Positions 145 through 56,600 are shown, counted from the stretch's first letter. The stretch: DNA of 64,000 nt from a virus (IMGVR_UViG_3300049597_000059), one strand, 5' to 3'. The notes: a model not told the origin generated them from the sequence alone. Program-made: numbers and translations.

Positions 145-156
145 CCCTAATTAAAT

Positions 157-1386: not shown

Positions 1387-1391
1387 ATACA

Positions 1392-34902: not shown

Positions 34903-37900
34903 ATGGCAATTTTTGATAAAGAGCTTATTGACAATACTTCTAATAGAGATTATGGTAAACCTGAAATGGATCTGCGTTCTCCAGAGACCAGAAAGGTTGA
35001 TGTGAGTCTAGGAGGTTTTGAAGACTTTGCTATTGGAGGTCCTAGTAGATCTTCTGGTTTAACTATTGACCAATTATCAGACTTTTCACGTGTTCCTACA
35101 AATCAAAATACATTTAACTCTCCTGTACAAATGATTCCTAGAAGTGAACTTCTAGCCAATCAACGTTACAATATATATGAAAGAAATAGAGATTTAGAAA
35201 ACGTAGCTGGACTACAACAAAGTTGGGCAGATCAATTAGCTAATGGTGTTGTTAAATTTGCAGCAATTGGCGGTGGTACATTCCTTCAAAGTTTTGGTAC
35301 TATACCAAACACAGTATCTGCATTAAAGACAGGTAAGTTATCTGAGTTATCTGGAGGACCTGATGGTTATGAGTCTAAGGTGGGTGACTGGTTAACGAAC
35401 ATTGAAGATATATTTCCTAACTATTACACTAGACGAGAAAAAGAAAGTCCATTCTTAGCAGCCCTTCCTTTTGCTCCAGGATCTGCAAACTTCTGGGGAG
35501 ATAAGATTATTAAGAACCTAGGTTTTACAGCAGGTGCTATTGGTGGAGCAGTTGTTCAAGATTTAGCAATTGGTGCTATTACAGGAGGTATTGGTGAAAT
35601 TCCATTAGTTGCTGCTCAAATTGGTAAAGCTTCTTTGTATTTAAATAAATTATTTACAGGAACCAATCGCTTAGATGAAGTTCTTAATTTAGCTACTCAA
35701 CTTGGTAAAACAGAAAAGCAAATACTAAACATCAAACGTTTAGGTGAAGTTGCTGCTGCAACAAAGGTGACAGACGGTGCTAGATATGCACTAAACATAT
35801 ACGGTTCTGCTAGAACAGAAGCTGCTATTGAAGCTAGAGATGGTTACAAACAAGTTAGAGAAAACTTAATCAATCAATATAAGTTAGAAAACCTTGGTGA
35901 AGAACCTACAGGAGCAGATGCTAAACAGATAGAAGATTTAGCAACAAATGCTATGAATACCAGATTTGGTATTAACATGGCACTACTCACTGTGTCCAAT
36001 GCTGTACAGTTTGGTAACTTATTCAAATCATTTAGCAATGCTTCATCTAGTGGCATCTCTGGTTCATTAACTAGAGAGCTAGAAGATATTGGTAAGTTTG
36101 GATTGAAAGAAGGTAGTATAGATGTATTTGAATCTAAGGCTGCTAAAACTCTTCGTGGTAAAATTTGGGAATCTGTAAAACCTAAAGTAGCTAACATCTT
36201 TACAGAAGGTGTTTATGAAGAGGGTGGACAATTTGCTGCTGAAAGAGGTACGTTTGATTACTACACTAGAAAATACAAAAACCTTAACGACCCTAATAAT
36301 AAACAAAACTGGAACGAATTAAATGAGGTTATTAACTCTACTAATAAAGGGTTAGCTGATCAATACGGTTCAGAAGAGGGTCTTGAAAATATGTTTGTTG
36401 GTGCATTATCTGCTTTAATTAGCGGTGGCATCATGAGCAGAATTGATAGTGTTAAAGGTAAAGGTGCTGATGCTAGATTACAGTCTACCATCAATATGCT
36501 TAATAGATATGGTATCACTGGAATGTTACAAGATAACTACACTGATACACTAAACTCAGCTGCCATAGCTAAAGAAATGGATACAGCTGCTAAGTCTGGT
36601 AACATCTTTAAGTATAAGAACCTTAAGAAAGACATGTTCTTTAACTTTGTAAACTCACGCATTCCTTCTGGTATGCATGACGTTACACTTGAGCAATTGA
36701 ACATGTTAAAAGATTTATCCAAAGAAGAGTTTGAGAAAACCTTTGGAATGGACTTCAACACTTCTAATAAGAATACAGTTGATGCGTATGTAGACAATTT
36801 AATCTCAAATGCAAATAAGATTAAGTCTACAGTTGATTCATTAGACAGTACGTTTAAGAATCCTTTTGCAAAAATTACAGATCCTAAAACTCCTGAAGAG
36901 GCAGTTGCTGCTAATAATCATGATGTCTTTAATGAATGGAAGACTAACTTAGCATACTATGCTATGGTTGCTCCAGATGCAAATGATAGACTATCTTCTA
37001 TTTCTCAAACTGTTGCTGGTGTTAATCCATTGATTAACAATGACTTATTAGGCAAGCTTACCGATCCAACTAGCTTAAGAGAATTAAGTAGTAACTATGA
37101 AGAGAGAGCTAATCAGTTAAACAGAACAATCACTGAGTTTACAAGTCCTGAAGATAAGAAGGCTATAAAAGCACAGGTTAAGGCTTTGCGTACAAGTGCA
37201 GAGAGAATCAACCTTGCTATCAATAATAGAGATTTAGACATGAAGACGTTTAACTCTCTATTAAACTTTGAGTTAAATAACCTAGATAGTACCAAGGATG
37301 ATGTTGTGGGTATGGAGCGTGCTTCTGAGTTATATGGATATGGTGTTGATATTAACAAGCTTATTGGATTAAAGAGATCTGCTTCTAGCATACTTGATGA
37401 ATTAGCAAGTGAATCAGGTCTTGAGAAGTTCTTTAAAGAAGCTAGTGAAATAGCTTCTGAGGAACCACCAACCACTGTTCCTGGAGAAGAAGAAGCTCCA
37501 GCAGCTGAAGTTACTCCTGCTGTAGTTCCTCAATATACTAATGTAAAGGGTAAGAGAGAGAATTTAGAATTAAACAGAGAATACGAAGTTGCTAAGCTTA
37601 GACCTTCTAAGGTTAATAGATTAGCAGAAGACAGATGGCAAGTTATCTCTCCTGATGGAACTTTTGAAATCTATCCTACGAAGGAGAAAGCTCAAGAGAT
37701 TGCTAAAGACTTAGATGAAGAGTTTGCTAGCTTAGCTAAGGTGAAGATCGTTGCATTAAATGAAGATGGTACAGCTAAGGTGGAAGATAAAGATGGTAAC
37801 ATCTATAATATTGACACTAGAAAGCTATCAGGATTTAATAAGGTTGAAAGTGAACAAGAGAAGTTACAAAAGGTTGCAGATCAATTAGGTAGACAACAAC

Positions 37901-40900
37901 AAGAGGTTGAAAAGAAATCTGGTATTGTTGCTACAGGAAATCCAAGTTTGGAAACATTTGAAAAGGAAGACCCTAAGAAATCTGCAAATATATTATATAC
38001 ATCTACAACAGGTGCTTCTGAAACTTGGGAACAACTAGCTAAACCACATCAGGTTAGATCTAGACAGTTCTTAAACAATGTTAAAAACTTTGGTAACAGA
38101 GCTAACATGAAGATAATCCTTGTAACTCCTAATCAAGAAGAATCTTTAGGGTTAAAAGGATTAAGTGAGTTATCTGGATCTACAGATACTAGTGTAGAGA
38201 ATGGTTTAGTTGCTGCTGTATATGTAGTTCAGTCTAATGGTAAGAATTACTTTGTAGACAAAGATGGTAAACAACTTACTGAGGTGGGTCAACCTGTTGA
38301 TATGAATGTTGTAGTGTTCTCAACAATGCCTACTGCTGCATTATATAATAGTAAAGGAGATCCACGTTTTAGAAAGCAAGAAGAAGCTCAGGCAAAAGAA
38401 ATGTCTAGAGCATGGACTGTTAAAAGAGCTGAGTTATTTGCAGCTCCTGCAGGAACCTATACGATTTATGATTTTGGTGTATCTAAGGGTGTGCCTATTA
38501 CTGATAGAAATGAAAGAAAGTTTGTAGGAGATAATCTTGTTCCTCAGAAGAAGATTGCTACCCAAGAGAACCTAATTGTTATTTCTACCACTGGAACACT
38601 TGCTTACAATGGAGAGAACTTAAAGTTCCCTGTAGGTAGACCTGTGTTACAATACGGTGATACATTACAATACGTAGATAACAGAACCTTTACAAACGAT
38701 GAGGCTAAGAGCATCTTTGAAGCTATTAGACTTTTGTCAGAAGAAGTGCAGTCTCAGAATACTAAGGGTGAAACTATTGAACTTAATAGATTATATACAG
38801 ACTTCTTACAGAATGTTCTCTATTGGAGAAAAGGTAAGGATACTAAAGATAACCAAATACACATAGATGAAAGATCTATGGAGCTGTATATTGGTGGTGA
38901 TAAATATAACTTTGCTGACATTGCTAGTAATGAAGCTGCTATTGTTAGCAAGCTAAAAGGTACATTTAACAATGTTAACAATGAATCTTTAAAGAAGACT
39001 AGTGAACCATTCATTGAGTTATACTTTGAAAATGGATTCCTACAAAACAGAGAGTGGGCTAACTATCAATCATATTTACTATCTAATAAATATCCTGATG
39101 GTAAGAACCGTTCTATTACAGACACTCCTCTATCTACATATGTAAACAAACCTACAGACGCAGTTCCTTACAACTATGTTAGGAAGTATGCTATCCTTGA
39201 GGGATTAGATCTTCCTGTACAGCAGACTGCCCCTGTAGTAACTCCTGTGGCTGAAGCAGCACCATCTGCTGATAAGCTAGGTGAGTTCTTTGTAAATGGA
39301 ACAGAAAATACAATATCTCTAAAGGAACCTCTAGGTGAAACTAAGTTTACAGCAACAATTAACAGTGATGGTAATGTTGTTGCTGAAGTTATTTCTAATC
39401 CTAAGATACAAGCAATTGCTGCAACTGCTGAGAAAGCTAAGCCTTATTTAGATTTCTTAAAGAATACAATGGGTACTGATGGTAAACCGTTGTTTGATGC
39501 TACAAAGAGTGTAGAAGATTCTATTCTACAGTTTGTAGCATTAAACATTAGTGCTCGTTTGCAGGCTATAAAAAATGAACAAGCTGCTGCTGCTCCAGTT
39601 GTAACAACAGCTGCTACAGTTACACAAACCACTCCTTATGGTACAGAGGCTGCTCCTGCAGTGGTTACTTCTACAGAGTCTGTAGATAAAAAATCTGGTA
39701 TAAAAGGAACTTTAACAGGACAAGGAACTTCTTTAGAATTAGAAGTAATAGGAGATACTGGTAAAGAATTTTTACTTACTGTAGATAGAAAAGGTAATAT
39801 TAGTTTATTCTCTGAGAAACAATCTGACGGTAGTTATAAATCAGGGGAACCTGCTTCAAAAGAAGCAGTAGATAAATTATACAATAAGTATATATCTGAA
39901 AAAACAAGAACAGCTATAACTAATTGGTTAAATTCTTTTACTGGTTCTTGGGCTGCTCCAGAAACACAAGATGGTAAAAATTATGATAAAGCAGAAAAAG
40001 CACTTAATGCTGAACTAGCTGCTTTAGAAGGACAACCTACAGTTGCTGTACCTGCTTTAATATCTCCTGTTATACAGTCTAGTTTAGATATGCTTTCTAA
40101 AGCACAGGAATTATTAAATGCCCAATCTAAAAAGTTTGAAAAGTACATACCTGCTGTACAGAAGTATTTAGATACTAAAAAACAGCAGCTACAAGATCCA
40201 AAGCTTACAGTTGAACAACGTGAAAAAATAGCTAAGACTATTGAAATGGATATGAAGATACCAATTGTATCTTTAAATAATTTGGTTCTTGAATTTGATA
40301 CAGGTCGTGTAGAAAAAATATATATCAATAATCCTGAAACTAAAGAGAGTTATAATTTTACTGCTTTCTTTCAGGAAAATGGAGAAAGAAACTTTGAAAA
40401 CAATCCAAACTATGCTTTTAATCCAGATGAAAGATTAGGACAGGGAAGTAATTATGGTTATGATATTGTGTCTAAAAACTCTATCATACCTATAGAAGGT
40501 CTTAACTTGAGAGAAGCTGAAACTCTAAGACACATTTTATCTGGAGCTGATCCAAAGGCTACTCAGTATGCAGCTTCTGGTGATGAGAATCTTGGTCAAG
40601 GTCTTTTAATGGGTGTAATTAAACACTACTTTATAGAGAAGGCTGCTGGTAGAATGCAACGTGACTATTGGGATTATTTACAAGATCCTCGTAAAGAGAT
40701 GCGTGAGCAAATTGAAGCTATGGAAGCTCAACCAGCTACTGCTCCTAAGAACTTTGGTGCAACTAAACCTCCTTCAAACAGTGAGTATAGAAGAGTGGGT
40801 GTTGGTGGTGTAGAAAGAATCAATGATGCTGAGATAGAAATATTTAAAAGATGGGCTGCAGAAAATGTTCCAGGTATTCCATTTGAGATATTAGATAACA

Positions 40901-43900
40901 TCATCAGTACAAATGATGGTGAGAAGGCTTGGGGTGCATTTGAAAAAGGTGTGGCTAAGTTCTATAAGTCAGCTGCTAGAGGTACAGAATACCATGAGGT
41001 ATTTGAGGGTATATGGAAAGCTTTCCTTACAGAAGAACAAAGACAAGCTATATTAGATGAGTTTAAATCTAAGCCTGGTACATTTACAGATAGACAATCT
41101 GGTAAGAAGATTGCTTATGACCAAGCTACAGATAAGCAAGCTAAAGAAAGAATAGCTGATGACTTTGCTGATTTCAAGGTGGGTAAACTTCCTGCTAGAA
41201 GTATTGGTGAAAGAATCCTAAACTTCTTTAGAAACATTATTGAGTTTGTTAAACAGTTTGTAAACAAACCTACACAAAAGCAAGAGTTATTCAAAGCTAT
41301 TGAGGCAGGTAAGTTTAAAGAAATGACTGTTCCAGATAGTGTTAAGAATGACATGTCTGAGTACAGAGCTGTTGAAGGATTAAGTGAAAGACAAACACAT
41401 GAGTTTGTTCAGGATATTACAGCTAGGTCTTTCCAAATTATGTTTGGAACTAATACATCTTTGTACAATCCAGAAAAACTTACAGCTCCTGATATATTTA
41501 ACCAAGTTAAAAGTCAATATGCTGAAGAAGGCAAGTTGGAACTATTAGGTGAAAACGCTTGGAATCAATTAGTTAATAAAACAAAAGAGTTCTTACGTAC
41601 ATTTAAACTTGAGTTTGATGAGAATCAAAGTATTAGTATTAATGATGAGAACGTAAATAAAAATGATTACGCTCCTGAACCATTCTCTACAGATTGGAAG
41701 AAGAGTTCTTCGTTTGCTATCAAGTTACTTATTGGTACATTAACTGAAACCACACCAAGTAATCAAGAGAACGCAAGTAGTATGGCTCTCCCTGCTCAGA
41801 AACTATCTGATGTAATGGGATACAAGTTATTAAACTTTACTAGATCATTTGCTACAGTGCTAGATAAACTAGCTAATACAACAAAGGTTACTTCTGTTGT
41901 AGATAAGCTGATTGACCTTGCTAAATATGATAGCAACTATGTACGTCTATTCACTCGTGTGGGTGGTAATAGAAACAACATGGTTATTGACTTCTCTAAA
42001 TTTGAAGCACAGGATTGGAGATTGTTTGTTAACTTCTATCAAACATTCACCAAGCAAAAGCCTGATGCACTTATTCAATACGTTAGTGGAGATGAGGTGT
42101 ATACAGGATCTGCTAACCTATACACTGCTGCTAACTCAGTTAAAGAAGGTTGGATAGAGAACATGAAAGCTTTATCTAAAGTGGAAGGTTCTTTAATTAG
42201 CTATAACAGTGGTACAAAGACTTACAAAGTTGGAGACTTAACTAATGTGTCAAATAAGACTCCTGAAGAGATGATAACATTCCTAGGTAATCTAGGTATT
42301 GAATTCCCTATGGAAGTCTATTCAAAGTTAAAGACTGTTCAAAAGAATAAGTTTGCTAACGCTATTGGTGGATTGATTATTTCTCTTAGAGGAAAGAACG
42401 ATATATTAAGCGTTACAGGTAAGGTGTTAGACATCAATGGTCCATTGAGTCTCATCTCTGAACTATATGTAAAGGTGACCAACCCTAACATTGATGCTAC
42501 TTATTTTAACGTTGAGAACAGAAGAACAAACGCATTCTCAGAAAACAATGCTCCTTCTTTATTTGAGAACTTATTTAATGAAGCAAATACATTAGATGAG
42601 CTTCTTGAAGCTAGACCAGAGCTTAAAGATATTTTCTCTGCAAGTAGCCAAGTGTTAAAGAAGGGTGGATTATTCTTTGATGAAGATGGTAATAGAATTA
42701 GATCTATAAAGGTTAGTTACATCCAGGGAACTAAGCTTGTAGATGAGAATGATGGTACAGCTACTAGTAGATTAACTGAAGGAGAAAGATTTACACAAGA
42801 GTTTAACCAAAACCTTAATGGTAACTACTATGTACTTATTCCTGCAGATGGTTCTACAGAGTGGATGATGAACCTAGGTAACAACGTTCGTTTCTCAGCA
42901 TTTGAAAACGGAACAGCTTGGGGTAAGGTTTATACAACCTTTAAAGGATATTTAAAAGATGAGATCAACTTAGCACTAACTGCTGCTAGTAGAACTCAAC
43001 TTATGAATGTAGGAAACAAAGCTTCTGAGCTTCGCTTCTTCAATGATATTCTTTCTAAAGATACGTTAGCTAGCATCAATAACTTGATTGCTAAAGAGGC
43101 ATCTGAAGAAGAAATCAACGCATTCATTGAAGCTAATATAGGAGACATCAACAAGTCTATTAAGGATTACATTGATGGTGTATCTGATGTTACATTTAAA
43201 ACACTTGCTGCAAACGGAGAGATCTATGTAAACACTAAGGGTGAATACTCTTATCCTAAACTAGATGATGTATTTGCAAAAGCAGAGAAGTTTAATAAGT
43301 TTAAGCTTTCTGAGAAAAAGTTAAACAATATTATAAGTTTTGCTAATGCGAACTATATAATCAACAACATAGAATACCACAAAATCTTATTTGGTGATCC
43401 ATATCAATTTAAGATTAAAGATAACATCCTAGATGAAACTAAGCGTATCAAGTCTTTCTTATCTCCTAGAAGAACTACATTTGATAGCCCAGACTATAAT
43501 ACATTCCTTAATCAGGAACTAAATAAAGCTGGAGAGATTGAATTGAATGAGGGAGATCCAGGATTCCAGAAGTTCAAACCTTACACCAACACTATTACAT
43601 TGAAGGATGTAAAGGTGTTAGGTAGATTATTAGGTGAGACTAATGAGGCTGATGCTGCTTCTTATTTAATGGATGGTACATATAAAGAAGTTAAGTTAAA
43701 GAATGGTCAATGGTCTGATGAGGCTGAAGCTTGGCACCAATGGCAAATGGCTTACACTAGAAATAAAATGGCTGCCAAGGGTGATTACACTTATACTAAT
43801 GATTCATTAAGAGCTCAGGATGAGAAGACTATATCTAAACCAGAACCACTATATATTACAGAGGTGTTGAAACCTATTGTAACTGGTAACAAGTATGGTG

Positions 43901-46900
43901 CTACACAGTTTGATCTAGTGTTAGATAAGTTCTCTCAACTACCTCTATACTATAAGGCTATAGAAGGAACTAACCTAGAGAAGCTTTATGTTAAGATGAT
44001 GAAGGAAGATGTGGGCTATGTTATATTTGAGTCTGGCAGAAAGGTGGGCACTGAAACATTGTACAGTTTGTATAATGGAGATGGTAGCTTAAACGATGGT
44101 GGATTTGATAACAAGATACAAGTTCCTTGGAGTGCTTACGGTATTCAAGTGGAGAATAGCTATGAAGGATCTAAGCAACAAACTCGTGGTTCTCAGCCTA
44201 CTAAACTTGCTAGCTTAAACCTATTTAACAATGGTGTAGCTACAAGTCCTGAAGCTGCTAGTGAGTATGCTCGTAACAAAGAGATATTAGATAGGATGCA
44301 CGAGAATGGATATAACGAGCTATTAAGAAAGCTTGGTATTGAAGATCTTGGTGATGGGTTTAAACTTACAACTAATGTAGACGTATCTAAACTTCTTGAG
44401 TATGAAATGCTTAGAAGAGAGATGTCTGACAATGCTAAAGATACTGTACAGTTAGATGAGAATGGTCAATTTAGAATTCCATTTGAAGCATCTAATGCCT
44501 ACGTACAGATTAGAAATATTCTTTATTCAATGGTGGATAAAGCCCTTACATCTCCTAAGATGAATGGTGGTCCTAAGGTACAGGTTCCTGTAACAGGATG
44601 GGAGAATGCAAAAGCTGGTAGAAAGATTGCTCTTAAAACAAAAGATGGATTTAAAGAAATCTCTAAAGTAGAATATAATAACCTGTCTGAAGAAGATAAG
44701 AAGAAGGTAAGATTAACAGACGACACTCTTAAGTTCTATACTAAGGACCAACCTTATTGTGAGGTGTTATTACCACACTGGTTTAAGGTGAAGTTTGGTA
44801 AGAAGTTCCCTGATGATAAAGCTCTACTTAACTATCTAAATAGTACAGCAGAAGGACGTTCTATTCTTACGGGAGTTGGTTTCCGTATTCCTACACAGGA
44901 ATTAAGTAACATTGAGGTGTTTAGAGTGAAAGGTTTCTTACCACAATCTATGGGAGATACTATTGTTGTTCCTTCTGAAATTACTACCAAGGCTGGATCT
45001 GACTTTGATATAGATAAATTAAACACTTATTTAAAGGCTACTTATTTAGATAAGAATGGTGACATCCGTCTAGTTAAATACAAAGGTTCTGAAGAAGCTA
45101 CTAAAGAGTTCTACGCTAATGTATTTAATGAAATGCTTGATAAGAAAACTGTCAAGAAGAACGAAATATTGGATGCACTATACATAATGAACAATGATGC
45201 TAGTGATCCAGAGAACTTAGTAGACAGATATTCAGGCATATTAGATGCTATGATTTCTGAGCTAGGTGATGTAAACACTACAGAAGGTCTTGAAGAAAGA
45301 CTTGCTGCAGAGCTAGATAAGTTAAGTGATGCCACTCTACAAGCTGAGTTGAAAGATAAGTATGTTAGAGACATGTATAAGAAGTCTTTAGAGAATGAAT
45401 ACTACGATTCTTTAACAAAACTTCTTACACTTCCAGAGAACTTTGAGAGATTGATTTCTCCCATAGGAGATGCTGGTTTAAAAGACTTAGCTTCTAAATT
45501 AGATAAGTTAAGAGGGTATGATGAAAGCACTATCAAGAACAGGATGCTTGATAGAAACTATCTAACTAAACTTAGACACGCATTCGTAACTGCTAAGCGT
45601 TGGGTGGGTATTGCTGCTGTAAACATCACTAACCATTCTCTTACACAAAAGATTTCTGCATATATTGATCCTAGTAAGTTTGAGCTTGTTAATGAGGTTG
45701 ATAGAAAGATATTAGGTGATGGTAAGGTGGCTCTTCCACATAATACAGTGAATGTTAACGGTGAAGAACGTATATCCTTATCTTCAATTCTAGATAAGGC
45801 TGGTAAGTATATTTCTGGTAAACTATCTGGATATGCAACAGCGTTTGTGGATGTGGCTAAAGATCCATACATCCTTAAGATTATAGGTTCTGACTTAGCT
45901 GTAGGTACATTTATGTACTTAGAAAGAATTGGTGTTCCAATTGAAACAACAGCAATGTTTATGAACCAGCCTATTATTAAGGAGTATTTAACATACTTAG
46001 ATAACACAGGAGCTAGAGGTTTATTTAACCAAAAGAACATAGATGCTGTTAAGTCTAAGTTTGTTACAACTGGAACATTGATTAACTCTGCAGGTGTTAG
46101 CGTTGACACTCTTGAAGATAACATTTCAGAATACTATTCTAAAGGAGAACTTAGTGAACCTAAGAATGCTGAGCAACATGTTATACTAAACGAGTTCTTG
46201 AAATACGCTAAGATGGCTGAGTATCTATTTAACTTTGGTCAAGCGATTAACTATGACACTACCAAGTTTAGAAGTGGTGATGCATTGTTTAAGAAGGAAA
46301 CAAGAACAGAAGTTGCTGAAGATATTAACATTATCAGTTCTGTAAATGAGTTGTTAGATGCTTCATTTATAGGTAAGCAAGCTGAGCTTATTGCTTCTTC
46401 TATGGAAGCTATGGGTGAGATATTCAAGCTTGAGAAGGATGAGTTTAGAGTTATAACTAATTCAATATTAAAGTCTTTTGCAAAAGATCAATACTTAAGT
46501 GCGGATGACTATGATAGAATTGCTAACAAACTAAAAGCTTCTCTTCTAGACTATATCATCCAAACTAAGAGTGGTTTAAACGGTGAGATTAAAGCATTGT
46601 TAGTTGATGCAGGTACATCTGTAGCTTCTCAACTAGCTGAGGCTAAGCGTAACAACCCAGGACTTACAATCTTAAACGACCTACAAGTGGTTAGTTCTGA
46701 TAGAGTGGATGGTGCTAAGAGTATTAAACTGTTAGCTAATAACAAAGATGCTTACGATGAGAACTTGTATACAGGATATATGAGAGAGCTCAGAGATAAT
46801 CCATCTACTACAGAGCTGTACAACAACATAGTTAAATTGTCTATTCTCCAGGGTACATACCAAACAGGTATATCTATAAAGAACATTATTCCTATTGAAG

Positions 46901-48591
46901 ACTATAGCAAAATCATTGCTCCAATAATAGCTCCTCTTGTATCTAATGATTCATTACTATCATTTGCTCAAGGTGCGTTCCAAAGGAACAACTGGAAGGA
47001 TGACAAGATATTTGGTAAGGTGAAGCCTAAGTTCTTCTTAGCTCAGGAGACTCCTATTGCTGTGGATATATATGATAATGACATTTACCAATACTTCTCT
47101 CCAGCTTTCCCTAACATTAAGAACTTAGGAATCAAGTCTACAGACAGAAAGATATTGTTATTGAGTGAGCGTTATAATGCAGCTAGCTTGAAATATGATT
47201 TTGTTAAGGTTCCTAGAGTGGTTGAAGATAGTTTTACAGGAACAAGAGTTAATATGACTAATGGTGAAAATGTAACCAATTCAATGTTTGCAATTAAGAA
47301 ATCTAAAGGTGACCTATCTTTAAAAGACATATACGGTTATCAAAAGGTTAAATATGCTGACGGTAGTCCAGTGATTGTGTATGATGATAAAGGAGTGGGT
47401 AGCCACGTATATAAATTAGTTAATCTATATGGTGACGGTCAATTAGCTTCTGAATACTATGAGAACAATATTCCTTCTGTATTAAACAATGGCACTGTAA
47501 AGATTGCTAATGAGATTACGGATGAAGAAATAATTGCACATTATGGTGGGCAAACTCAACCTAAAGTTGTACCTTTACAATCTATGGCAATTGGAAAACC
47601 TGAGTTCAATAAACTTCCTGCTAAAATTGGAAAGCCAACAATGACCTATGCAGGTATTGGTTCAAGACAAACTCCTCCAGAAGTTCTTAAACAAATGACT
47701 GAGGTGGCTAAACAACTTGAATCAAAAGGATATACATTAAATACAGGCATCACCTTTGGTGGTAAAGAAGAAGGAGCTGATAAAGCTTTCTCTGATGGAG
47801 CTACAAATAAAAATCTATTCTCTCCTGAGAAACAAGGATCTAGAGCTAAAGAACAAGCTATTGCTAACGAGATGCATCCTAATCCATCAGCTTTAACACA
47901 AGGTGCTTTAAAACTAATGGCTAGAAATACCAATCAAATATTTGGTGATAATCTTGATACACCTGTAGACTTTGTATTGTTCTACGCTAAAGAAACTGCT
48001 AGTATTAGACCACAAGGTGGAACAGGTCAAGCTGTAGAAATGGCTAGATTAAAGGGTATTCCTACAATCAATATGGCTAATCCTAATTGGAGAGAAGAAT
48101 TAAATGCAGCGTTAACTCAACCAACAGCTGCTCAAAGTGAACAACCGTTGAGTGCGTATGTAACTGTGGAGCAATTAGAAGCTGATAAATCTTTCTTGAA
48201 TACAGCCATAGAGTTTGTTGATGAAATCTCTACAAACAAAGATGTTCCTGTAGCAATGAGAAACTTAAACAAAGGAGAGAAAATACAAATGGTTAAAGAC
48301 CTGATGCAGAAGAAGTTTGATGATAAAGCTTGGACCAGCCCTGTTACACAGGCAGATGGTAGTAAAGCTACAGCACTTCCTGCAGAACAGTTCAAATCAT
48401 TTAACGAGTTCTTAACGTTTGCTTTGTTACATGAGAAAGCACACGAGACTATATCAAAAGTTTCTGGCGAAACAATTGGTCAGTATGAAGATAGAATCAA
48501 TGCTGCAGCGTTAAACAATATGCCTAAACCTCCTGCTGAATTTGAAGGCGATTTAGAAGGAGCTGATAACCCTAATCCTTGTGGACAATAA
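34903..48591 (+). CDS. giant polyvalent virion protein (4562 aa) with RNA polymerase-like DxDxD catalytic motif, C-terminal SLOG/DprA-like Rossmann domain and HExxH motif
   Basis: One uninterrupted ORF; GSDFDIDKLN at 45001-45018 resembles the two-barrel RNAP metal-binding loop (NADFDGD); MTYAGIGSRQTP… Rossmann-like segment at 47641-48110; LLHEKAHE at 48430-48447; Ala/Pro/Val/Thr linkers between domains. Confidence 0.55.
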   Translation: MAIFDKELIDNTSNRDYGKPEMDLRSPETRKVDVSLGGFEDFAIGGPSRSSGLTIDQLSDFSRVPTNQNTFNSPVQMIPRSELLANQRYNIYERNRDLENVAGLQQSWADQLANGVVKFAAIGGGTFLQSFGTIPNTVSALKTGKLSELSGGPDGYESKVGDWLTNIEDIFPNYYTRREKESPFLAALPFAPGSANFWGDKIIKNLGFTAGAIGGAVVQDLAIGAITGGIGEIPLVAAQIGKASLYLNKLFTGTNRLDEVLNLATQLGKTEKQILNIKRLGEVAAATKVTDGARYALNIYGSARTEAAIEARDGYKQVRENLINQYKLENLGEEPTGADAKQIEDLATNAMNTRFGINMALLTVSNAVQFGNLFKSFSNASSSGISGSLTRELEDIGKFGLKEGSIDVFESKAAKTLRGKIWESVKPKVANIFTEGVYEEGGQFAAERGTFDYYTRKYKNLNDPNNKQNWNELNEVINSTNKGLADQYGSEEGLENMFVGALSALISGGIMSRIDSVKGKGADARLQSTINMLNRYGITGMLQDNYTDTLNSAAIAKEMDTAAKSGNIFKYKNLKKDMFFNFVNSRIPSGMHDVTLEQLNMLKDLSKEEFEKTFGMDFNTSNKNTVDAYVDNLISNANKIKSTVDSLDSTFKNPFAKITDPKTPEEAVAANNHDVFNEWKTNLAYYAMVAPDANDRLSSISQTVAGVNPLINNDLLGKLTDPTSLRELSSNYEERANQLNRTITEFTSPEDKKAIKAQVKALRTSAERINLAINNRDLDMKTFNSLLNFELNNLDSTKDDVVGMERASELYGYGVDINKLIGLKRSASSILDELASESGLEKFFKEASEIASEEPPTTVPGEEEAPAAEVTPAVVPQYTNVKGKRENLELNREYEVAKLRPSKVNRLAEDRWQVISPDGTFEIYPTKEKAQEIAKDLDEEFASLAKVKIVALNEDGTAKVEDKDGNIYNIDTRKLSGFNKVESEQEKLQKVADQLGRQQQEVEKKSGIVATGNPSLETFEKEDPKKSANILYTSTTGASETWEQLAKPHQVRSRQFLNNVKNFGNRANMKIILVTPNQEESLGLKGLSELSGSTDTSVENGLVAAVYVVQSNGKNYFVDKDGKQLTEVGQPVDMNVVVFSTMPTAALYNSKGDPRFRKQEEAQAKEMSRAWTVKRAELFAAPAGTYTIYDFGVSKGVPITDRNERKFVGDNLVPQKKIATQENLIVISTTGTLAYNGENLKFPVGRPVLQYGDTLQYVDNRTFTNDEAKSIFEAIRLLSEEVQSQNTKGETIELNRLYTDFLQNVLYWRKGKDTKDNQIHIDERSMELYIGGDKYNFADIASNEAAIVSKLKGTFNNVNNESLKKTSEPFIELYFENGFLQNREWANYQSYLLSNKYPDGKNRSITDTPLSTYVNKPTDAVPYNYVRKYAILEGLDLPVQQTAPVVTPVAEAAPSADKLGEFFVNGTENTISLKEPLGETKFTATINSDGNVVAEVISNPKIQAIAATAEKAKPYLDFLKNTMGTDGKPLFDATKSVEDSILQFVALNISARLQAIKNEQAAAAPVVTTAATVTQTTPYGTEAAPAVVTSTESVDKKSGIKGTLTGQGTSLELEVIGDTGKEFLLTVDRKGNISLFSEKQSDGSYKSGEPASKEAVDKLYNKYISEKTRTAITNWLNSFTGSWAAPETQDGKNYDKAEKALNAELAALEGQPTVAVPALISPVIQSSLDMLSKAQELLNAQSKKFEKYIPAVQKYLDTKKQQLQDPKLTVEQREKIAKTIEMDMKIPIVSLNNLVLEFDTGRVEKIYINNPETKESYNFTAFFQENGERNFENNPNYAFNPDERLGQGSNYGYDIVSKNSIIPIEGLNLREAETLRHILSGADPKATQYAASGDENLGQGLLMGVIKHYFIEKAAGRMQRDYWDYLQDPRKEMREQIEAMEAQPATAPKNFGATKPPSNSEYRRVGVGGVERINDAEIEIFKRWAAENVPGIPFEILDNIISTNDGEKAWGAFEKGVAKFYKSAARGTEYHEVFEGIWKAFLTEEQRQAILDEFKSKPGTFTDRQSGKKIAYDQATDKQAKERIADDFADFKVGKLPARSIGERILNFFRNIIEFVKQFVNKPTQKQELFKAIEAGKFKEMTVPDSVKNDMSEYRAVEGLSERQTHEFVQDITARSFQIMFGTNTSLYNPEKLTAPDIFNQVKSQYAEEGKLELLGENAWNQLVNKTKEFLRTFKLEFDENQSISINDENVNKNDYAPEPFSTDWKKSSSFAIKLLIGTLTETTPSNQENASSMALPAQKLSDVMGYKLLNFTRSFATVLDKLANTTKVTSVVDKLIDLAKYDSNYVRLFTRVGGNRNNMVIDFSKFEAQDWRLFVNFYQTFTKQKPDALIQYVSGDEVYTGSANLYTAANSVKEGWIENMKALSKVEGSLISYNSGTKTYKVGDLTNVSNKTPEEMITFLGNLGIEFPMEVYSKLKTVQKNKFANAIGGLIISLRGKNDILSVTGKVLDINGPLSLISELYVKVTNPNIDATYFNVENRRTNAFSENNAPSLFENLFNEANTLDELLEARPELKDIFSASSQVLKKGGLFFDEDGNRIRSIKVSYIQGTKLVDENDGTATSRLTEGERFTQEFNQNLNGNYYVLIPADGSTEWMMNLGNNVRFSAFENGTAWGKVYTTFKGYLKDEINLALTAASRTQLMNVGNKASELRFFNDILSKDTLASINNLIAKEASEEEINAFIEANIGDINKSIKDYIDGVSDVTFKTLAANGEIYVNTKGEYSYPKLDDVFAKAEKFNKFKLSEKKLNNIISFANANYIINNIEYHKILFGDPYQFKIKDNILDETKRIKSFLSPRRTTFDSPDYNTFLNQELNKAGEIELNEGDPGFQKFKPYTNTITLKDVKVLGRLLGETNEADAASYLMDGTYKEVKLKNGQWSDEAEAWHQWQMAYTRNKMAAKGDYTYTNDSLRAQDEKTISKPEPLYITEVLKPIVTGNKYGATQFDLVLDKFSQLPLYYKAIEGTNLEKLYVKMMKEDVGYVIFESGRKVGTETLYSLYNGDGSLNDGGFDNKIQVPWSAYGIQVENSYEGSKQQTRGSQPTKLASLNLFNNGVATSPEAASEYARNKEILDRMHENGYNELLRKLGIEDLGDGFKLTTNVDVSKLLEYEMLRREMSDNAKDTVQLDENGQFRIPFEASNAYVQIRNILYSMVDKALTSPKMNGGPKVQVPVTGWENAKAGRKIALKTKDGFKEISKVEYNNLSEEDKKKVRLTDDTLKFYTKDQPYCEVLLPHWFKVKFGKKFPDDKALLNYLNSTAEGRSILTGVGFRIPTQELSNIEVFRVKGFLPQSMGDTIVVPSEITTKAGSDFDIDKLNTYLKATYLDKNGDIRLVKYKGSEEATKEFYANVFNEMLDKKTVKKNEILDALYIMNNDASDPENLVDRYSGILDAMISELGDVNTTEGLEERLAAELDKLSDATLQAELKDKYVRDMYKKSLENEYYDSLTKLLTLPENFERLISPIGDAGLKDLASKLDKLRGYDESTIKNRMLDRNYLTKLRHAFVTAKRWVGIAAVNITNHSLTQKISAYIDPSKFELVNEVDRKILGDGKVALPHNTVNVNGEERISLSSILDKAGKYISGKLSGYATAFVDVAKDPYILKIIGSDLAVGTFMYLERIGVPIETTAMFMNQPIIKEYLTYLDNTGARGLFNQKNIDAVKSKFVTTGTLINSAGVSVDTLEDNISEYYSKGELSEPKNAEQHVILNEFLKYAKMAEYLFNFGQAINYDTTKFRSGDALFKKETRTEVAEDINIISSVNELLDASFIGKQAELIASSMEAMGEIFKLEKDEFRVITNSILKSFAKDQYLSADDYDRIANKLKASLLDYIIQTKSGLNGEIKALLVDAGTSVASQLAEAKRNNPGLTILNDLQVVSSDRVDGAKSIKLLANNKDAYDENLYTGYMRELRDNPSTTELYNNIVKLSILQGTYQTGISIKNIIPIEDYSKIIAPIIAPLVSNDSLLSFAQGAFQRNNWKDDKIFGKVKPKFFLAQETPIAVDIYDNDIYQYFSPAFPNIKNLGIKSTDRKILLLSERYNAASLKYDFVKVPRVVEDSFTGTRVNMTNGENVTNSMFAIKKSKGDLSLKDIYGYQKVKYADGSPVIVYDDKGVGSHVYKLVNLYGDGQLASEYYENNIPSVLNNGTVKIANEITDEEIIAHYGGQTQPKVVPLQSMAIGKPEFNKLPAKIGKPTMTYAGIGSRQTPPEVLKQMTEVAKQLESKGYTLNTGITFGGKEEGADKAFSDGATNKNLFSPEKQGSRAKEQAIANEMHPNPSALTQGALKLMARNTNQIFGDNLDTPVDFVLFYAKETASIRPQGGTGQAVEMARLKGIPTINMANPNWREELNAALTQPTAAQSEQPLSAYVTVEQLEADKSFLNTAIEFVDEISTNKDVPVAMRNLNKGEKIQMVKDLMQKKFDDKAWTSPVTQADGSKATALPAEQFKSFNEFLTFALLHEKAHETISKVSGETIGQYEDRINAAALNNMPKPPAEFEGDLEGADNPNPCGQ

Positions 48592-48605
48592 ATAACTGAT
48601 AAACA

Positions 48606-51600
48606 ATGAGTTGTAAAGTAAAGTATATAGAGAACAATTATAGAGCTGACCATCCTATATTGGCTGATCGATTAACAGACATCTATCACTCAGTATGGAA
48701 AAGCATCACCAAGTCTAATCTTTTTAGAAAGTATGGTGAAGGTAATACAGCAACATATTTATTCTCTCCTGCAGGAACTGGTCAGAACAAAAAACAGTTA
48801 GAGCTTATCAATAAGATAAACAAGGAGTTTAATGCTCCTGAAGGAAAGTCTTTGGTTAGATCTAAACTTACAGTGGCAGGTACCAACTCTAAGGTGGAAG
48901 TTGATGTAAATCCACTTGCTCAACAAGAATGGGAAAAGATTGCTGTACAGGGAACATTGTTTCAAAAGCCTACAGATACAGTGAGTTCTAAAGCTTCTCC
49001 TAAAACACTTGCTATAGTTAAAGACTTCTTAACTCGTATAGGGGTTGATATTAAGCAAATGGACAAGGTTGTTGTGAATGGTGTTAAGGTGGATGCTAAT
49101 GGTGCTGCTTTGATTACACAAAAGTTAGTACAGGTTGTTGAGGGTAAGGAAGAAGTAGCTCTTACAGAAGAAGCTATGCACTTTGCTGTTGAAATAATCC
49201 AGCAATTAGATCCTAAATTATTCAACAAACTATTGAAAGAAATCAACAGTTATAACATATTAAATGATGTGTTTCGTGAATATGGATCTGATCCAAACTA
49301 CCAAACTGCTGATGGTAAGCCTGATGTATTAAAGCTTAAGAAAGAAGCTATTGCTAAGGTGCTTACAGAGACAGTTATAAATAAGAACGAAGGCTTAACA
49401 GAAAAGCCTGAGTTAATAGCCAAGGCTGAGAGCTGGTGGCAAACAATTGTAAACGCTCTTAAATCTTTATTCCAAAAGTCTGGATTTGACCAAGCTGCAA
49501 TGCAAGTGTTATCTGGAGAGTTTGTTGGAACAGTTGATGAGCTTAGAGATTCTGAGAACGATGTTTACTTACAAAAGGATAAACAACAACAGATATACGA
49601 TTCTATTATAGATCTTAAAGCTAAGGTTGTTAAGAAAGATGATGGATACTATGTAGATGGAGTGAAAGTTCTTAGAAGAGTTACTGACTTAGTTAGTGAC
49701 TGGTACGATAGAAGATTCAAAGCTAATGACTTAACTAAGAGTGAGTTTGCTAAAGCTGTAGATGATTTAAAGGCTGAGAAGGGTACAGCAGGACATGCTG
49801 ATATTGAACATGCATTTGAATTATTTGTAGATGCTGATGGTTTCTTAAGACCAGAACCTCTTAATGATGATGGATATGTTTCTCAACTAGATCCTAATGA
49901 TAGGACTATGTATGAAACATTAAAGGCAAATCTAAAGGAACGTTTGAATTCATTCCCTAAAGAAAATGGTGGTACGAGGTTTATGTCTGAGGCAATTGTA
50001 TATGATCCTAAGCGTAACTTAGCTGGTACTATTGACTTCTTAGCTATTGAACCTGATGGTAAGACAAACATCCTTGACTGGAAGTTTATGGATCTTAACG
50101 TAGATAAGTATGATGACATTCCTTGGTATAAGGTGAATGCTTGGAGATTACAGATGGAGCAATACAAAGCTATTCTTCAAAATACATATAATGTTAGTCC
50201 TCAAGACTTTAAGCAAACAAGAATGATTCCTATTAAAGCATTCTACTCTCAGGGTAATGCTAAAACTGGAGACCTTCCTAAACTTCAATCAATTAAGATA
50301 GGTGATGTTAGTGTTAAAGCTATTCAAGATGACTATCTAATTCCTGTAGGTCTTGAAGGAGAGAAGACAGGTAATAAAAAGATTGATGCTCTTATTGAAA
50401 AACTTAATGCTGTATACAAACAGATTTCTGAAAAGAAAGCTCTACCTTCTGAGAAGCTATCTAAAGCTGAGCAGTTGAATGCTCTCTTTACAGCAATCAG
50501 ACAGTTACAAATGAAAGGAAACGTTAAACCTCTATTGTATCAGGCTAAGGTGCTGAACAAGCAAATCAAAACTACAATTGATACTTACAATACTACATGG
50601 GCTGGTAAAGACCCTAAGTCTTTTAGTGAGGAAGAAATGAACACCTTTCAAGAAGAGATTGAAACAGCACAAGATGCTCTTGATATGTATACAAAACTAG
50701 ACTCTGAACTTAGATTCTTATTCCTTGGAGATTTATCAGAAGAAGATAAGAAGATTAAAGAAGAGCTTAGAGATACAGCAGATGATGCTAGAGATTTACA
50801 AAGTGATTTAAACACTGTAGCAGAAGAGTTTGCAGATACAATTATAGCAGGTAGTGTTGAGGTAGATAACTTATTGTCTCCTGAAAAGATTATCAAGGGT
50901 ATCACTAGATTCTTTTCTTCTACCACTACATTACAGTTGAAGGGAGTGGAGGTGTTGTTTAAGAAAGCAAATAAAGCTTTTGGTTTATCTTCTATGGACA
51001 CTCTTACAGAGACTAAAAGACTACAAGATTTAAAAGAAGCATATGATAAACTAGCTGCTTCCAAAGGATTAACAATCAAAAACTACTTTGACTTAATCAA
51101 GAAGAAAGATAGTAACGAACTTATAGATGAGTTTAATCCTGAGTTCTATAAAGAACTAAGAACTAAAATCAATGATAAAGACTATGCTTGGATTAGAGAA
51201 AACGTTGATGCTCAAGAGTTTAAGAAGTCTTTAGATGAGAAGTTAGAAGAAGAGTATAAGAGAATTGATGATAAAGCTAGAATAGGTACAGATGAAGAAA
51301 TCAACTCTGCAATTGTAAGAGAGAAGAATGATGCTAAGAGGAAGTACGATGCAAGTACTTCAGAATCAATTGGTTGGTTACAATATGACCTAGTTAAAAA
51401 GTTCCCTGATAGATCTAAGTGGGAATCTAATGAATGGAAAGAACTACACAAACCTGATAACAAAGCTGCTCTTGACTTCTATAATTATATTATAGAGAGG
51501 AACAATGAATACAAAGAGATTGGTTACATCAATAAAGCTGAAGCTAGAACGTTCCTTCCTTATGTAAGAAAGGGGTTGATGGAAAAGATTATATTTGGTG

Positions 51601-53687: not shown

Positions 53688-56600
53688 ATGGACATTACTT
53701 GTTCAGCTGAACCGTGCCCGATTATACTAAATTCTACCTGCGTATTCTACGAGGGTAACACTTTGGTGTATACAGGTATTAATACTAACGACAATCTTCA
53801 GACTGCTTTACAGAAAATAGATCAAAAGTTTCAAGACGCTGGTTTAGGTTATATATTTACGAATGGTATTGAACAACTAACTCCTGGTGGTGCAGTTATG
53901 TTGGGTGGAGCATTGATTCAAAACACTACAATTGGTGGGTTATACAATCTTGCATTTGCTGGTACATTGGAAGCATCTGCTCTCATCACTACAGGCGGTA
54001 CATCTTCAGATTTTGTAAAGGGTGATGGTAGCTTAGATCCAACTAGCTATCAGCCAGCAGGCAATTATATTTCAAATTTAACAGGTGATGTAACAGCTAA
54101 CGGACCAGGTTCTGTAACTGCTACACTAGCAACAGTATTTGGTGCACCTGGAACATATGGTAATTCAGGAAGCGTTCCTCGTATTACAGTGGATGGTAAG
54201 GGTAGGATTACAAATGTTACCCCTGTAGCAATCAACTATCCAGCTCAATCATTAAGTTTTACAGGCGATGTAAGTGGATCTGGTTTCACTGGATCTCCAG
54301 TTACACTAACATTAGATACAGTTAATTCTAATGTATACGGAAGTAACACATTCCTTAAGTTTGCTGTAAATGGTAAAGGTCTTGTGACCTCTGCTGCTCC
54401 TGTTACACAAGGAGATATTGTATCTGCATTAGGGTATGTACCAGTTCCTACAAGCAGAACGTTAAGTATTAATGGTGTAACCTATGACTTATCTGCAAAT
54501 AGAAACTGGTCTGTAGGTACTGTGACAAGTGTGCAACTTGCTATGCCTCAAGCATTTCAAATCACAACACCTCCTGTAACTTCTTCAGGAACTATAAATG
54601 TTATAGCAACAGGATCGATAGCTCAATATATAAGAGGTGATGGTACCTTAGGTAACTTCACAGCTACAGCAGGTACCTCTGGTACTGCAGGTACAAGCGG
54701 AACATCTGGCACTAGCGGTACAACAGGTACTTCTGGAAGTTCAGGTACAAGTGCTACATCAGGGTCATCAGGGTCATCAGGTATAGATGGCACATCTGGT
54801 ACAAGTGGAACCACAGGAACTTCAGGTAGCTCTGGTACATCTGGCAGTTCAGGAACTGCTGGTACAACAGGTACATCAGGTACAGCAGGTACCAGTGGAA
54901 GCTCAGGTACTACAGGTACTAGTGGCAGTTCTGGAACCTCAGGATCAAGTGGTACAGCAGGTACAACAGGTACGTCTGGAACCAGTGGTACAGATGGAAC
55001 AGGGGGAACTTCTGGGACAAGTGGTACTAGTGGATCCTCTGGAACCACAGGTACGTCAGGTACTACAGGAACAAGTGGATCTTCAGGTACTGATGGTTCT
55101 GGTGGAACATCTGGTACATCTGGTACTAGTGGCACCAGTGGAACAAGTGGGACTAGTGCAACTGATGGTACAGGAGGTACTTCTGGTACATCAGGAACAA
55201 CAGGTTCATCTGGCTCTTCAGGTACAACAGGAACTAGCGGATCAAGTGGAACTAGTGGTAGTGCTGGTACATCAGGCACCACAGGTACAAGTGGGACCTC
55301 TGGAACATCAGGAAGTTCAGGAACATCTGCAACAGATGGTACTGGAGGTACTAGTGGAACTAGTGGGACATCAGGTACTTCTGGAACCACAGGAACTAGT
55401 GGTACTACAGGTACGTCTGGCTCTTCAGGAAGTAGTGGAAGTTCAGGTTCTTCAGGTACCACTGGAACAAGTGGCACAAGTGGAACAGCAGGTACATCAG
55501 GTATAAATGGTGTATCTGGAGGACTTATATACTATCTAAATCAATCATTAAATACAAGTTCTGCTTTTGGCAGTCCTACATATAAGCAGTGGTCTCCAAT
55601 TGGAACAGGCACTGGGGAACAAACTATAACAACAAGTATTGCAGGTTCTACAAGAACTCTCTTTGCTACATATGCTACAGATTCAAATGTTCCAGGTATA
55701 ACAAGTATACCTTCAGGACTTTGGGCTTGGGTAACACACTTCTCTATCAACGCTAATGTTAGCGTTAAAGTGGATATAGAGCTTTACAAATGCAACTCTA
55801 CAGGTGGAAGTGTAGTGTTTCTTGGAACAACCAACCTTGACACTGAATCAATGTCAAGTGGTGTTATCAAAGAATTTTTCACAGACTTATTCCTTCCTCA
55901 AACTGCAATGTTATCTACAGATAGACTTTACTGTCAAATCTATGTAGAGCATACAGGTGCAGGAAGTCAAAGCATTACATTCTATACAGAAGGAACAAGT
56001 AATTATTCATACGCACAAACCACATTCACTCCTCCTAGTGGTACTTCTGGATCTTCAGGTACATCAGGTGTTGGAGGAACTAGTGGCACATCTGGCACTA
56101 GTGGAACTGATGGTACGAGTGGAACTAGTGGTGTAAGTGGATCTAGTGGTACAACTGGTACCTCTGGAACTACTGGAACCAGTGGGTCTTCAGGAACTGC
56201 AGGCACAAGTGGAACTGATGGAACAGGAGGAACAAGCGGTACTAGTGGTACGACAGGCTCTTCAGGTTCTAGTGGAACAACAGGTACAAGTGGGACAAGT
56301 GGTACGTCTGCAACAAGTGGAACAAGTGGCACAACAGGAACTTCTGGCTCTAGTGGCTCAGCAGGTTCTAGTGGTACGTCTGGTACTAATGGAACAGGTG
56401 GTACAAGTGGTACTTCAGGAACCACTGGAACATCAGGTTCTTCTGGCAGTAGTGGCATCAATGGCACATCAGGATCCTCAGGTACTACAGGATCCTCAGG
56501 AACATCTGGTATTAATGGATCTAATGGCACCTCAGGTACAGCTGGTTCTTCAGGAACAAGTGGTACAAGTGGAACCAATGGTACAGGTGGTACGTCAGGT

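Follow-up and report, generated by a model that had tools for sequence, protein, structure and literature searches.

One protein of 4562 amino acids (aa) is encoded among the virion genes in a window of 64,000 nt (the whole stretch of DNA that was analyzed, one strand) from the virus IMGVR_UViG_3300049597_000059. In this window, an open reading frame (ORF) with an ATG start runs from 34903 to 48591 on the plus strand and has no internal stop codon. The predicted mass of its product is about 500 kDa; the product is called the giant below, and residue numbers are those of the 4562-aa ORF. An earlier note had described the ORF as uninterrupted over 13.7 kb, as was found (4562 codons, no stop), and had interpreted the product as a polyvalent virion protein combining an RNA polymerase-like DFDID module with SLOG and HExxH domains. 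We put the probability at about three in four that the ORF encodes a crAss-like cargo protein with a gp47-like part, an injected polymerase and an exchangeable effector slot. Residues 1 to ~2125 would be the counterpart of crAss001 gp47, with an N-terminal domain, linkers, an exchangeable cassette and a zincin-like HExxE/H domain. Residues ~2126–4228 would be a single-chain two-barrel RNA polymerase of the phi14:2 gp66 type with the catalytic DFDID, and residues 4229–4562 an effector slot with a SLOG/DprA-like domain, a small HExxH domain and a terminal Cys. The features are listed in Table 1.

The polymerase module and its relatives

When residues 2501–4562 were used in a tblastn search, they matched proteins annotated as RNA polymerases in phi14:2, crAss001 and many gut crassviruses. 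A phmmer search against the PDB sequences gave phi14:2 gp66 (6vr4_A) as the sole match (E = 9.1e-21), with residues 2793–3704 aligned to gp66 856–1680. Drobysheva et al. placed the connector of gp66 at 1095–1238, the catalytic DFDID at 1361–1365, the bridge helix at 1529–1559 and the trigger loop at 1598–1636; the matched span takes in the connector, the bridge helix and the trigger loop. TKxGSDFDIDK was identical between the giant and gp66. The resemblance of GSDFDIDKLN to the metal-chelating loop of RNA polymerases, which the earlier note had proposed, was supported by the gp66 match and by the column-for-column alignment with gp66 DFDID. These ten residues (3365–3374) are encoded at 44995–45024, while the interval first given for them, 45001–45018, encodes DFDIDK alone.

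Across all crAss-like polymerases, the fourth residue of DFDxD is Ile or Val, and the three Asp residues of the gp66 motif were probed by Ala substitution (Drobysheva et al.). The fourth residue is Ile in the giant, which fits the crAss-type rule. In the same study, gp66 was identified experimentally as a virion-delivered RNA polymerase for the early genes, with Mg-dependent RNA synthesis. A MAFFT alignment of eight polymerases contained 31 invariant columns, including K3047, G3049, G3096, Q3098, K3219, G3222, Q3227, R3328, P3330, N3498 and P3520. GSDFDxDK (3365–3372) of barrel 2 was invariant in all eight, as were a K and a G of barrel 1; candidates for the basic residues of the first barrel are K3047 and K3219, equivalent to gp66 K1065 and K1232, respectively. 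Residues 2901–3700, scanned in full with HMMER against 1.84 billion cluster representatives, returned 3125 homologues, and the counts given here come from the best 150 of these. GSDFD[IV]D was found in 135 of the 150. In 20,000 shuffles of the protein, DFDxD arose in 4.4%.

The similarity of residues ~3000–3700 to two-barrel RNA polymerases, on which the earlier note had made its interpretation depend, was seen both in the gp66 match and in the eight-polymerase alignment. On the basis of these alignments, residues ~2800–3780 are assigned to a crAss-type two-barrel virion RNA polymerase. By analogy with the characterized relatives, the giant would be packaged, ejected and active as a polymerase. 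The gene sits in the cargo or 'transcription' block of the crAss-like phage. Compared with phi14:2 gp66 and crAss001 gp50 (PDB 6VR4), the catalytic region is homologous, the bridge-helix and trigger-loop regions are conserved, and the genome position is the same, adjoining a gp65/gp49-like gene. However, gp66 is a stand-alone protein of 2180 aa, whereas the module in the window is embedded in a longer chain and is followed by the SLOG cassette and the HExxH tail. Lbo-JY46 XAI97381 (2748 aa) was considered as a further polymerase homologue and was rejected, as it has no DFDxD and gave no BLAST match.

The gp47-like half

Residues 51–844 and 2006–2143 matched crAss001 gp47, Dulem virus 41 XCD04986 and Lbo-JY46 XAI97382 in tblastn and blastp searches. 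For the N-terminal domain, the E values were 3e-45 with Lbo_1552 and 9e-22 with crAss001 gp47, and the motifs LPNYYT and SANFxGDKxxKNLGFxxGA were conserved. A separate gp47-like gene was found in crAss001, Dulem virus 41, Lbo-JY46 and the phi14:2 position (g067), either immediately before the polymerase gene or in its vicinity. As judged by these homologies, the extra N-terminal half corresponds to an adjacent virion gene (gp47 in crAss001, the gp67 position in phi14:2) that has been joined to the polymerase in frame, and the double length of the giant is due to this fusion. The protein of twice the usual size that had drawn attention is real, but its size is not surprising, since such fusions are the norm in a large clade. 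In crAss001, gp47, gp49 and gp50 were found in virions by mass spectrometry, were placed in the cargo zone of the capsid and must unfold to exit (crAss001 structural paper).

The linkers rich in A, P, V and T, which had been suspected of marking domain boundaries, fall at homology breakpoints. Among the Gly-zipper-like hydrophobic stretches that had been reported for the N-terminal part, one was found, of moderate hydropathy, at residues 208–240. crAss001 gp47 and others share its first part (GFxxGA), and the segment is a possible membrane-inserting element.

Zincin-like motifs and possible processing

The domain next to the fusion junction contains an invariant Y-H-E-x-F, followed by an A-[ED]-x-F helix. 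The motif was HExxH in crAss001 gp47, Dulem virus 41, cr4_1, cr108_1 and P0005, and HExxE in 96 of the 124 giants of at least 3500 aa; the window has HEVFE (residues 2031–2035), a motif that the earlier note did not mention. This junction domain gave no match to Pfam or PDB profiles, and its hhalign comparison with the tail domain gave a probability of 0.1. The AlphaFold model of residues 1955–2330 had a predicted local distance difference test score (pLDDT) of 56.6, too poor for a fold search.

In the tail domain, HEKAHE corresponds to residues 4510–4515 (window 48430–48447). The H, E and H, as well as GQYEDR, were invariant in homologues 55–59% identical. In the model, HEKAH lies on the predicted helix 272–288, and a second predicted helix (297–310) follows, with E4529 and D4530 at its beginning, in the place of an acidic third ligand; only two single-residue strand marks precede the active-site helix. 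PF14247 ('putative metallopeptidase') was sub-threshold in five of five tail-domain members (best E = 0.0016). A PDB profile search with the tail domain returned nothing relevant, and in fold searches the SLOG domain dominated the matches. HExxH arose in 0.7% of 20,000 shuffles of the protein, of which His makes up only 0.46%. The description of HEKAHE as zincin-like was upheld for the motif and the predicted helix, but no significant profile or fold match to zincins was found. The tail domain is a possible minimal zincin at the motif level, and both putative zincin domains are zincin-like by motif only.

His is strongly depleted in the cargo proteins (0.36–0.55%, window 34903–53549), and conserved His motifs therefore stand out. 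The 1121-aa cargo ORF at 25427–28792 has an HExxH (LDHEVKHAL) at aa 938–942 despite 0.36% His. HExxH was found in gp65 of phi14:2 (aa 245) versus gp47 of crAss001, and motifs of this zincin-like type appear to shift from one cargo protein to another.

The giant might instead be a true polyprotein, cut by its own zincin-like domains at aa ~2126–2240 and around the C-terminal cassette to give separate mature proteins, either once synthesized, within the capsid or following injection; this is the strongest competing explanation, although we rate it as the less probable one. Drobysheva et al., who note a 'single huge polyprotein' with reference to Yutin 2018, describe the fused polyproteins of some crAss-like phages as 'likely cleaved'. 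The relatives in which the modules are genes split at aa ~2126–2240 indicate that the modules can work as separate chains, and the conserved HExxH/E domain lies directly upstream of this junction, with a second HExxH in the tail. The polyvalent protein DdrB of phage P1, which has a zincin domain, is processed. However, no conserved cleavage site was found, and the junction-proximal domain is kept in the split forms, where no cleavage is needed; its second His is usually Glu in the clade. The split proteins each have their own terminal Cys, and the fused giant has none at the internal junction. N4-type virion RNA polymerases invariably carry zincin domains and are nevertheless packaged without being cut (Iyer et al. 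2017). Processing of the giant should not be assumed.

The C-terminal slot and its cassettes

The sequence MTYAGIGSRQTP (residues 4247–4258, window 47641–47676) belongs to a domain that matched phrog_768 (DprA-like) with E = 1e-42 over aa 4246–4406, the sole PHROG match of the whole giant; seven internal segments of the giant gave no PHROG match. The Rossmannoid SLOG fold is present, and the best fold and family matches were DprA proteins. The C-terminal SLOG/DprA-like Rossmann segment of the earlier note was confirmed by both the phrog_768 match and the fold match.

The polymerase genes of L005, L006 and P0001–P0003 stop at residues ~4211–4240, and the SLOG domain is therefore an addition. 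P0024 was 97.6% identical to residues 4106–4228, continued with an unrelated 209-aa cassette (phrog_2072) and then returned to 90% identity with residues 4396–4562. In P0136 and in L009 and L010, of which the latter two were 98.6% identical to the giant over residues 1946–4228, the slot held NADAR or cpYpsA + NADAR, with cpYpsA + NADAR in L009. In 117 giants, the part that follows the polymerase was 0 to 1553 aa long; the long tails that were sampled contained superfamily 1 (SF1) helicases, DUF7831, AlkB and ART-PolyVal (PF18760).

Exchange was also observed inside the gp47-like part. Cassette A (~250 aa) was 86–89% identical to segments of P0019 and P0020, although the N-terminus of P0020 was only 21% identical to the giant and that of P0019 gave no match. 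In L009 and L010, cassette A was swapped for unrelated sequence. Cassette A had no Pfam or PHROG match and, from its distribution, is regarded as a second recombination cassette.

Homologues of the SLOG domain (cassette B) were repeatedly fused to NADAR (PF08719) or DUF4326 (PF14216). Viral SLOG, NADAR and DUF4326 domains are predicted to process immune signals derived from ADP-ribose early in infection; in phages they are typically stand-alone, and mostly of the YpsA-like clade (Iyer et al. 2022). The same set of domains occupies the C-terminal slot of the giant family, but the SLOG domain of the window is DprA-like and covalently fused to an injected polymerase instead of standing alone. For the SLOG cassette, the most likely target is a nucleotide-derived immune signal of the host, from the ADP-ribose or NAD family, which it would bind or degrade. 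This counter-defence role is favoured because of the NADAR and DUF4326 fusions, the swaps in the slot and the prediction of Iyer et al. 2022, and the target is suggested by the relatives. That the polymerase bears a hypervariable effector slot, occupied in the window by a SLOG cassette, appears to be previously undescribed.

Several results weigh against the proposed architecture. The N-terminal third of the polymerase module has diverged beyond recognition from gp66: no similarity was detected between aa 2126–2793 and gp66 1–843 by phmmer or blastp, and the self-inhibiting domain that blocks the cleft in gp66 (196–233) could not be located by sequence. The proposal that both HExxH/E domains are zincins was not accepted, as PDB, Pfam and mutual profile searches gave no support. 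The giant matched neither the Pfam DprA family PF02481 nor any other Pfam family at E ≤ 1, although P0065 and P0086, homologues of cassette B, do carry PF02481. Many related giants lack a C-terminal cassette altogether, with tails of <60 aa in 28 of the 117, and so the polymerase does not need the cassette to function. DprA is a loader of RecA that binds single-stranded DNA, which leaves a DNA-handling role for the cassette. Such a role is also made possible by the in vitro preference of gp66 for single-stranded templates (Drobysheva et al.).

Along these lines, the DprA-like domain could act on DNA, supplying single-stranded template to the polymerase or, like cellular DprA, protecting or recombining the entering genome. 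This is the main alternative to the counter-defence role, but we regard it as unlikely. Besides the DprA matches in fold and family, SF1 helicases in some related tails and AAA_30 on the DprA-like homologue P0086 speak for it. The domain also contains GIGSR and GGTGQA, which we take to be DprA-signature-like. However, cpYpsA + NADAR fill the same slot in the relative with the 98.6% identical polymerase, and in the closest homologues of the domain, the fusion partner is NADAR or DUF4326, both of which process ADP-ribose. In addition, the DprA accessory domains are lacking, and only the Rossmannoid core is present.

The fusion in related phages

One continuous ORF of 3870–5004 aa, with the same layout and junctions, was found in 11 IMG/VR loci at 26–98% identity. 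The metagenomic fragments P0005–P0009 read straight through the junction, and conservation of the sequence was uninterrupted through it. A 1871-bp JGI contig encodes a fragment of 603 residues (P0022) that was 99.8% identical to residues 3960–4562. Among the best 150 of the 3125 representatives, 124 were at least 3500 aa long, mostly 4000–4500 aa, and the longest was 5650 aa. The RefSeq genome of crAssphage cr4_1 (Suoliviridae) contains a coding sequence (CDS) of 4491 aa (YP_010112556.1) with YHEAFH at 2002 and DFDID at 3433. In cr108_1 (L021), a fused CDS of 2967 aa is broken inside the catalytic motif, between GSD and FDID, and is accompanied by a CDS of 798 aa. At L021 13377–13668, the first CDS ends with ...AKAGSD and the next resumes 290 nt later; the break is presumably due to an intron or a comparable element, such as have been described in gut crassviruses.

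The modules of cr4_1 (4491 aa) and of the cr108_1 pair (2967 aa + 798 aa) have the same order and spacing as in the window. YHExF[HE] near 2000, DFDID near 3400, a C-terminal Cys and a following nuclease-containing protein of ~1700 aa are common to all three. However, identity to the window giant was only 22–26%, and cr4_1 differs in its recoded stop codons. No match to the SLOG/HExxH tail was found in cr4_1 or cr108_1 by BLAST against the window proteins and motif searches, which did not extend to scanning their C-termini against domain libraries.

In the split relatives, one gene ends and the next begins around the junction. P0013, P0014 and P0017 aligned up to aa 2149–2169 and ended ~50–65 residues further on, while P0001 and P0002 began at aa 2177 and 2244, respectively. 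In L006–L008, genes of 1927 aa and 2373 aa were found with a GIY-YIG homing endonuclease gene between them. This gene (L006 15790–16440) lies exactly at the boundary of the gp47-like and polymerase genes in three independent assemblies, and ~30 residues (giant aa 2120–2149) match both halves of the split. No group I intron was found by Rfam around the L006 endonuclease gene; the split was rejected as an intron and is a real gene split. In L005, a one-base frameshift was found in conserved sequence at residue 2126, in an A-run (L005 9860–9870); it leads from the gp47-like ORF into the polymerase frame and is likely a sequencing error or a programmed shift. A second split in L005, within the polymerase near giant aa 2993 (L005 12488–12599), is real, and there the upstream piece has gained an end of its own, ...AYCIW.

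The stop or frameshift that the earlier note had named as the finding that would split the ORF is absent from the window, and relatives read through the same junctions. That the ORF is a sequencing or assembly artefact joining two or three real genes is effectively refuted: the halves are separate genes in crAss001, phi14:2, Dulem virus 41 and Lbo-JY46 and a frameshift occurs at the junction in L005, but the ORF is continuous in the 11 independent loci, the fragments, the 124 representatives and RefSeq cr4_1, the junction sequence is conserved straight through, and the L005 frameshift, in a homopolymer of a contig whose name is in the style of a long-read assembler, is itself more likely an error. 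The fusion is genuine but ordinary, being the norm in a large clade and already present in the literature and in RefSeq.

The terminal cysteine

The giant contains 2 Cys in 4562 residues, the three upstream cargo proteins contain 0 and the downstream 1647-aa protein contains 1, while Cys makes up 1.8–1.9% of the muzzle and fibre proteins. A Cys was present within the last 12 residues in 121 of the 124 giants and was the very last residue in 48 of them, with a median Cys content of 0.046%; a terminal Cys would be expected by chance in ~0.5% (20,000 shuffles). The survey covered the cargo ORFs at 25427–53549, L001–L022 and P0142–P0291. The gp47-like and polymerase proteins of crAss001, phi14:2, Dulem virus 41, Lbo-JY46, cr4_1, cr108_1 and cr128_1 also had a Cys in the last dozen residues, as did all split forms; gp49-like proteins did not share it. 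The crAss001 structural paper does not mention cysteine, and nothing relevant was found when the literature was searched for a cysteine at the C-terminus in crAss phages. The conserved terminal cysteine appears to be previously undescribed. The near-absence of Cys suits a chain that must unfold and pass an oxidizing compartment, and we speculate that the terminal Cys could be a tether for packaging or ordered ejection.

Genome context

Every large ORF in the window lies on the plus strand, and together they form the phage structural module. Since the capsid and muzzle proteins matched the Pfam families Crass_capsid and crAss_MUZ, respectively, the phage is classed as crAss-like. After the muzzle gene, the order is three proteins of 900–1100 aa, the giant, the 1647-aa protein and a 2221-aa collagen-like fibre, and the order of muzzle, cargo genes, giant and gp49-like gene is that of crAss001, phi14:2 and Dulem virus 41. 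The sole match of the capsid protein was Leptolyngbya phage Lbo-JY46, at 26%. A megablast search of the ORF DNA against phage genomes gave no match, and an exact look-up of the 4562-aa protein returned no record. The phage is remote from the cultured and classified crassviruses. Pfam searches with the whole giant and its segments gave only noise (DUF2188, Homeodomain, Cbl_N3), and Rfam found no RNA family in the window.

Table 1. Features of the giant ORF and of neighbouring genes in the window.
Feature	Residues	Window position	Strand	Remarks
Whole ORF	1–4562	34903..48591	+	gp47-like virion protein + crAss-type virion RNA polymerase + C-terminal add-on (assigned by homology)
N-terminal conserved domain	1–850	34903..37452	+	Homologous to N-termini of crAss001 gp47, Dulem virus 41 XCD04986, Lbo-JY46 XAI97382
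Gly-zipper-like hydrophobic segment	208–240	35524..35622	+	FTAGAIGGAVVQDLAIGAITGGIGEIPLVAAQI; Kyte-Doolittle 19-residue mean ~1.4–1.5
A/P/V/T/E-rich linker	851–877	37453..37533	+	Lbo_1552 alignment stops at aa 844
A/P/V/T-rich linker	1438–1456	39214..39270	+	L006, P0017 alignments stop at aa 1458
A/P/V/T-rich linker pair	1559–1594	39577..39684	+	L005, P0016 alignments stop at aa 1554–1560
Variable cassette A	~1698–1946	39994..40740	+	Exchanged between lineages
C-terminal domain of gp47-like module	1960–2125	40780..41277	+	YHEVFE at aa 2030–2035 (40990–41007)
Fusion junction	~2126–2240	41278..41622	+	Gene boundary in split relatives
RNA polymerase module	2126–4228	41278..47586	+	Equivalent of phi14:2 gp66, crAss001 gp50
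Catalytic core	2794–3776	43282..46230	+	Versus gp66 ~843–1680: both double-psi beta-barrels, connector, bridge helix, trigger loop
Metal-binding motif DFDID	3367–3371	45001..45015	+	Aligns with gp66 1361-DFDID-1365
Variable cassette B, SLOG/DprA-like Rossmannoid domain	4229–4404	47587..48114	+	
T/Q/P/A-rich linker	4405–4415	48115..48147	+	pLDDT dip at model residues 181–186
Small helical tail domain	4415–4545	48145..48537	+	HEKAH at aa 4510–4514 (48430–48444), downstream YEDR
Cys4560	4560	48580..48582	+	Three residues from C-terminus; giant ends ...NPNPCGQ
Large terminase		2001–4031	+	
Portal		4031–6616	+	
Major capsid protein		8567–10120	+	Pfam Crass_capsid PF23898, 98.2 bits (cut-off 27)
Muzzle protein, 1590 aa		19777–24549	+	Pfam crAss_MUZ PF25731, 105.1 bits (cut-off 27)
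Downstream partner gene, 1647 aa		48606..53549	+	Homologue of crAss001 gp49 and cr108_1 1714-aa protein (blastp); nuclease-like region

The downstream 1647-aa protein matched the exonuclease family phrog_298 (E = 3.5e-5), and its match to PD-(D/E)XK PF12705 (E = 0.012) was below the cut-off. The 2221-aa ORF at 53688–60353 was considered as the real polymerase on account of its gp66-like size and was rejected, as it encodes a collagen-like tail fibre with multiple PHROG tail-fibre matches. The same ORF accounts for a local rise of the G+C content to 0.41–0.43. A gene for an SbcD/Mre11-like DNA repair exonuclease (16419–17669; phrog_704, E = 3e-45) lies among the tail-related genes of the structural module. 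Runs of Thr were found at or near the C-termini of several smaller ORFs, at 12007–13146, 15293–15688 and 60876–61223 (…TSTTTTLIP, …TTTTTTTIP and …TTTTTTTTAVEE).

Comparison with other polyvalent proteins

From its composition, the giant is best described as a polyvalent, mosaic virion protein. A gp47-like module, an RNA polymerase, a SLOG domain and motif-defined domains are joined in one chain encoded among virion genes, and cassettes are swapped at two sites, with ART-PolyVal, SF1 helicase, AlkB and NADAR in related tails; the MPTase assignment is at the motif level only. The 'polyvalent protein' concept invoked in the earlier note agrees with the near-identical relatives that carry different cassettes in the same slots. 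The N4-like virion RNA polymerase polyvalent proteins (Iyer et al. 2017) are likewise giant, packaged, injected, zincin-fused and mosaic, and some carry ART or lysozyme domains. However, the polymerase of N4 has a single subunit of the T7-like kind and is not related to the two-barrel enzymes, and the likeness is a parallel solution, not homology. The text of Iyer et al. 2017 contains 0 occurrences of 'crAss'. The virion RNA polymerase of the Thermus siphovirus P23-45 (5002 aa) is described as a two-barrel enzyme inside a giant structural or ejected protein, fused to the tail tape-measure protein, and the window giant is likened to it in architecture.

Proposed role and significance

In the proposed mechanism, the giant would be expressed late, along with the structural genes, and kept within the capsid. 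In an at least partly unfolded state, it would then be driven through the tail and into the host, either before the DNA or accompanying it, and would refold in the cytoplasm, where the central module would transcribe the phage early genes. The SLOG cassette would provide counter-defence that arrives with the first injected protein.

We also suggest, tentatively, a wider idea that we consider doubtful as a whole: that in this large clade of crAss-like phages the injected polymerase doubles as a delivery vehicle with swappable counter-defence slots, one C-terminal and one internal, and that the terminal Cys is a redox or metal tether. The slot enzymes (SLOG, NADAR, ART, AlkB, helicase) would be swapped by recombination between otherwise near-identical phages. 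The lone terminal Cys would form a redox-sensitive or metal-mediated tether that holds the cargo in the capsid or sets the order of ejection, and would be released in the reducing cytoplasm.

The identity of the polymerase and the fusion confirm known crassvirus biology and matter little alone. The mechanism of packaging and ejection was left open by the crAss001 structural study, and a Cys-poor, Cys-ended cargo may offer a handle on how proteins of half a megadalton are taken into the capsid and leave it through the tail of a podovirus. If the wider idea is true, an effector slot on the first-entering protein would tie early transcription to anti-defence in a very abundant phage group, and the position of the slot alone would yield a catalogue of candidate anti-defence domains.

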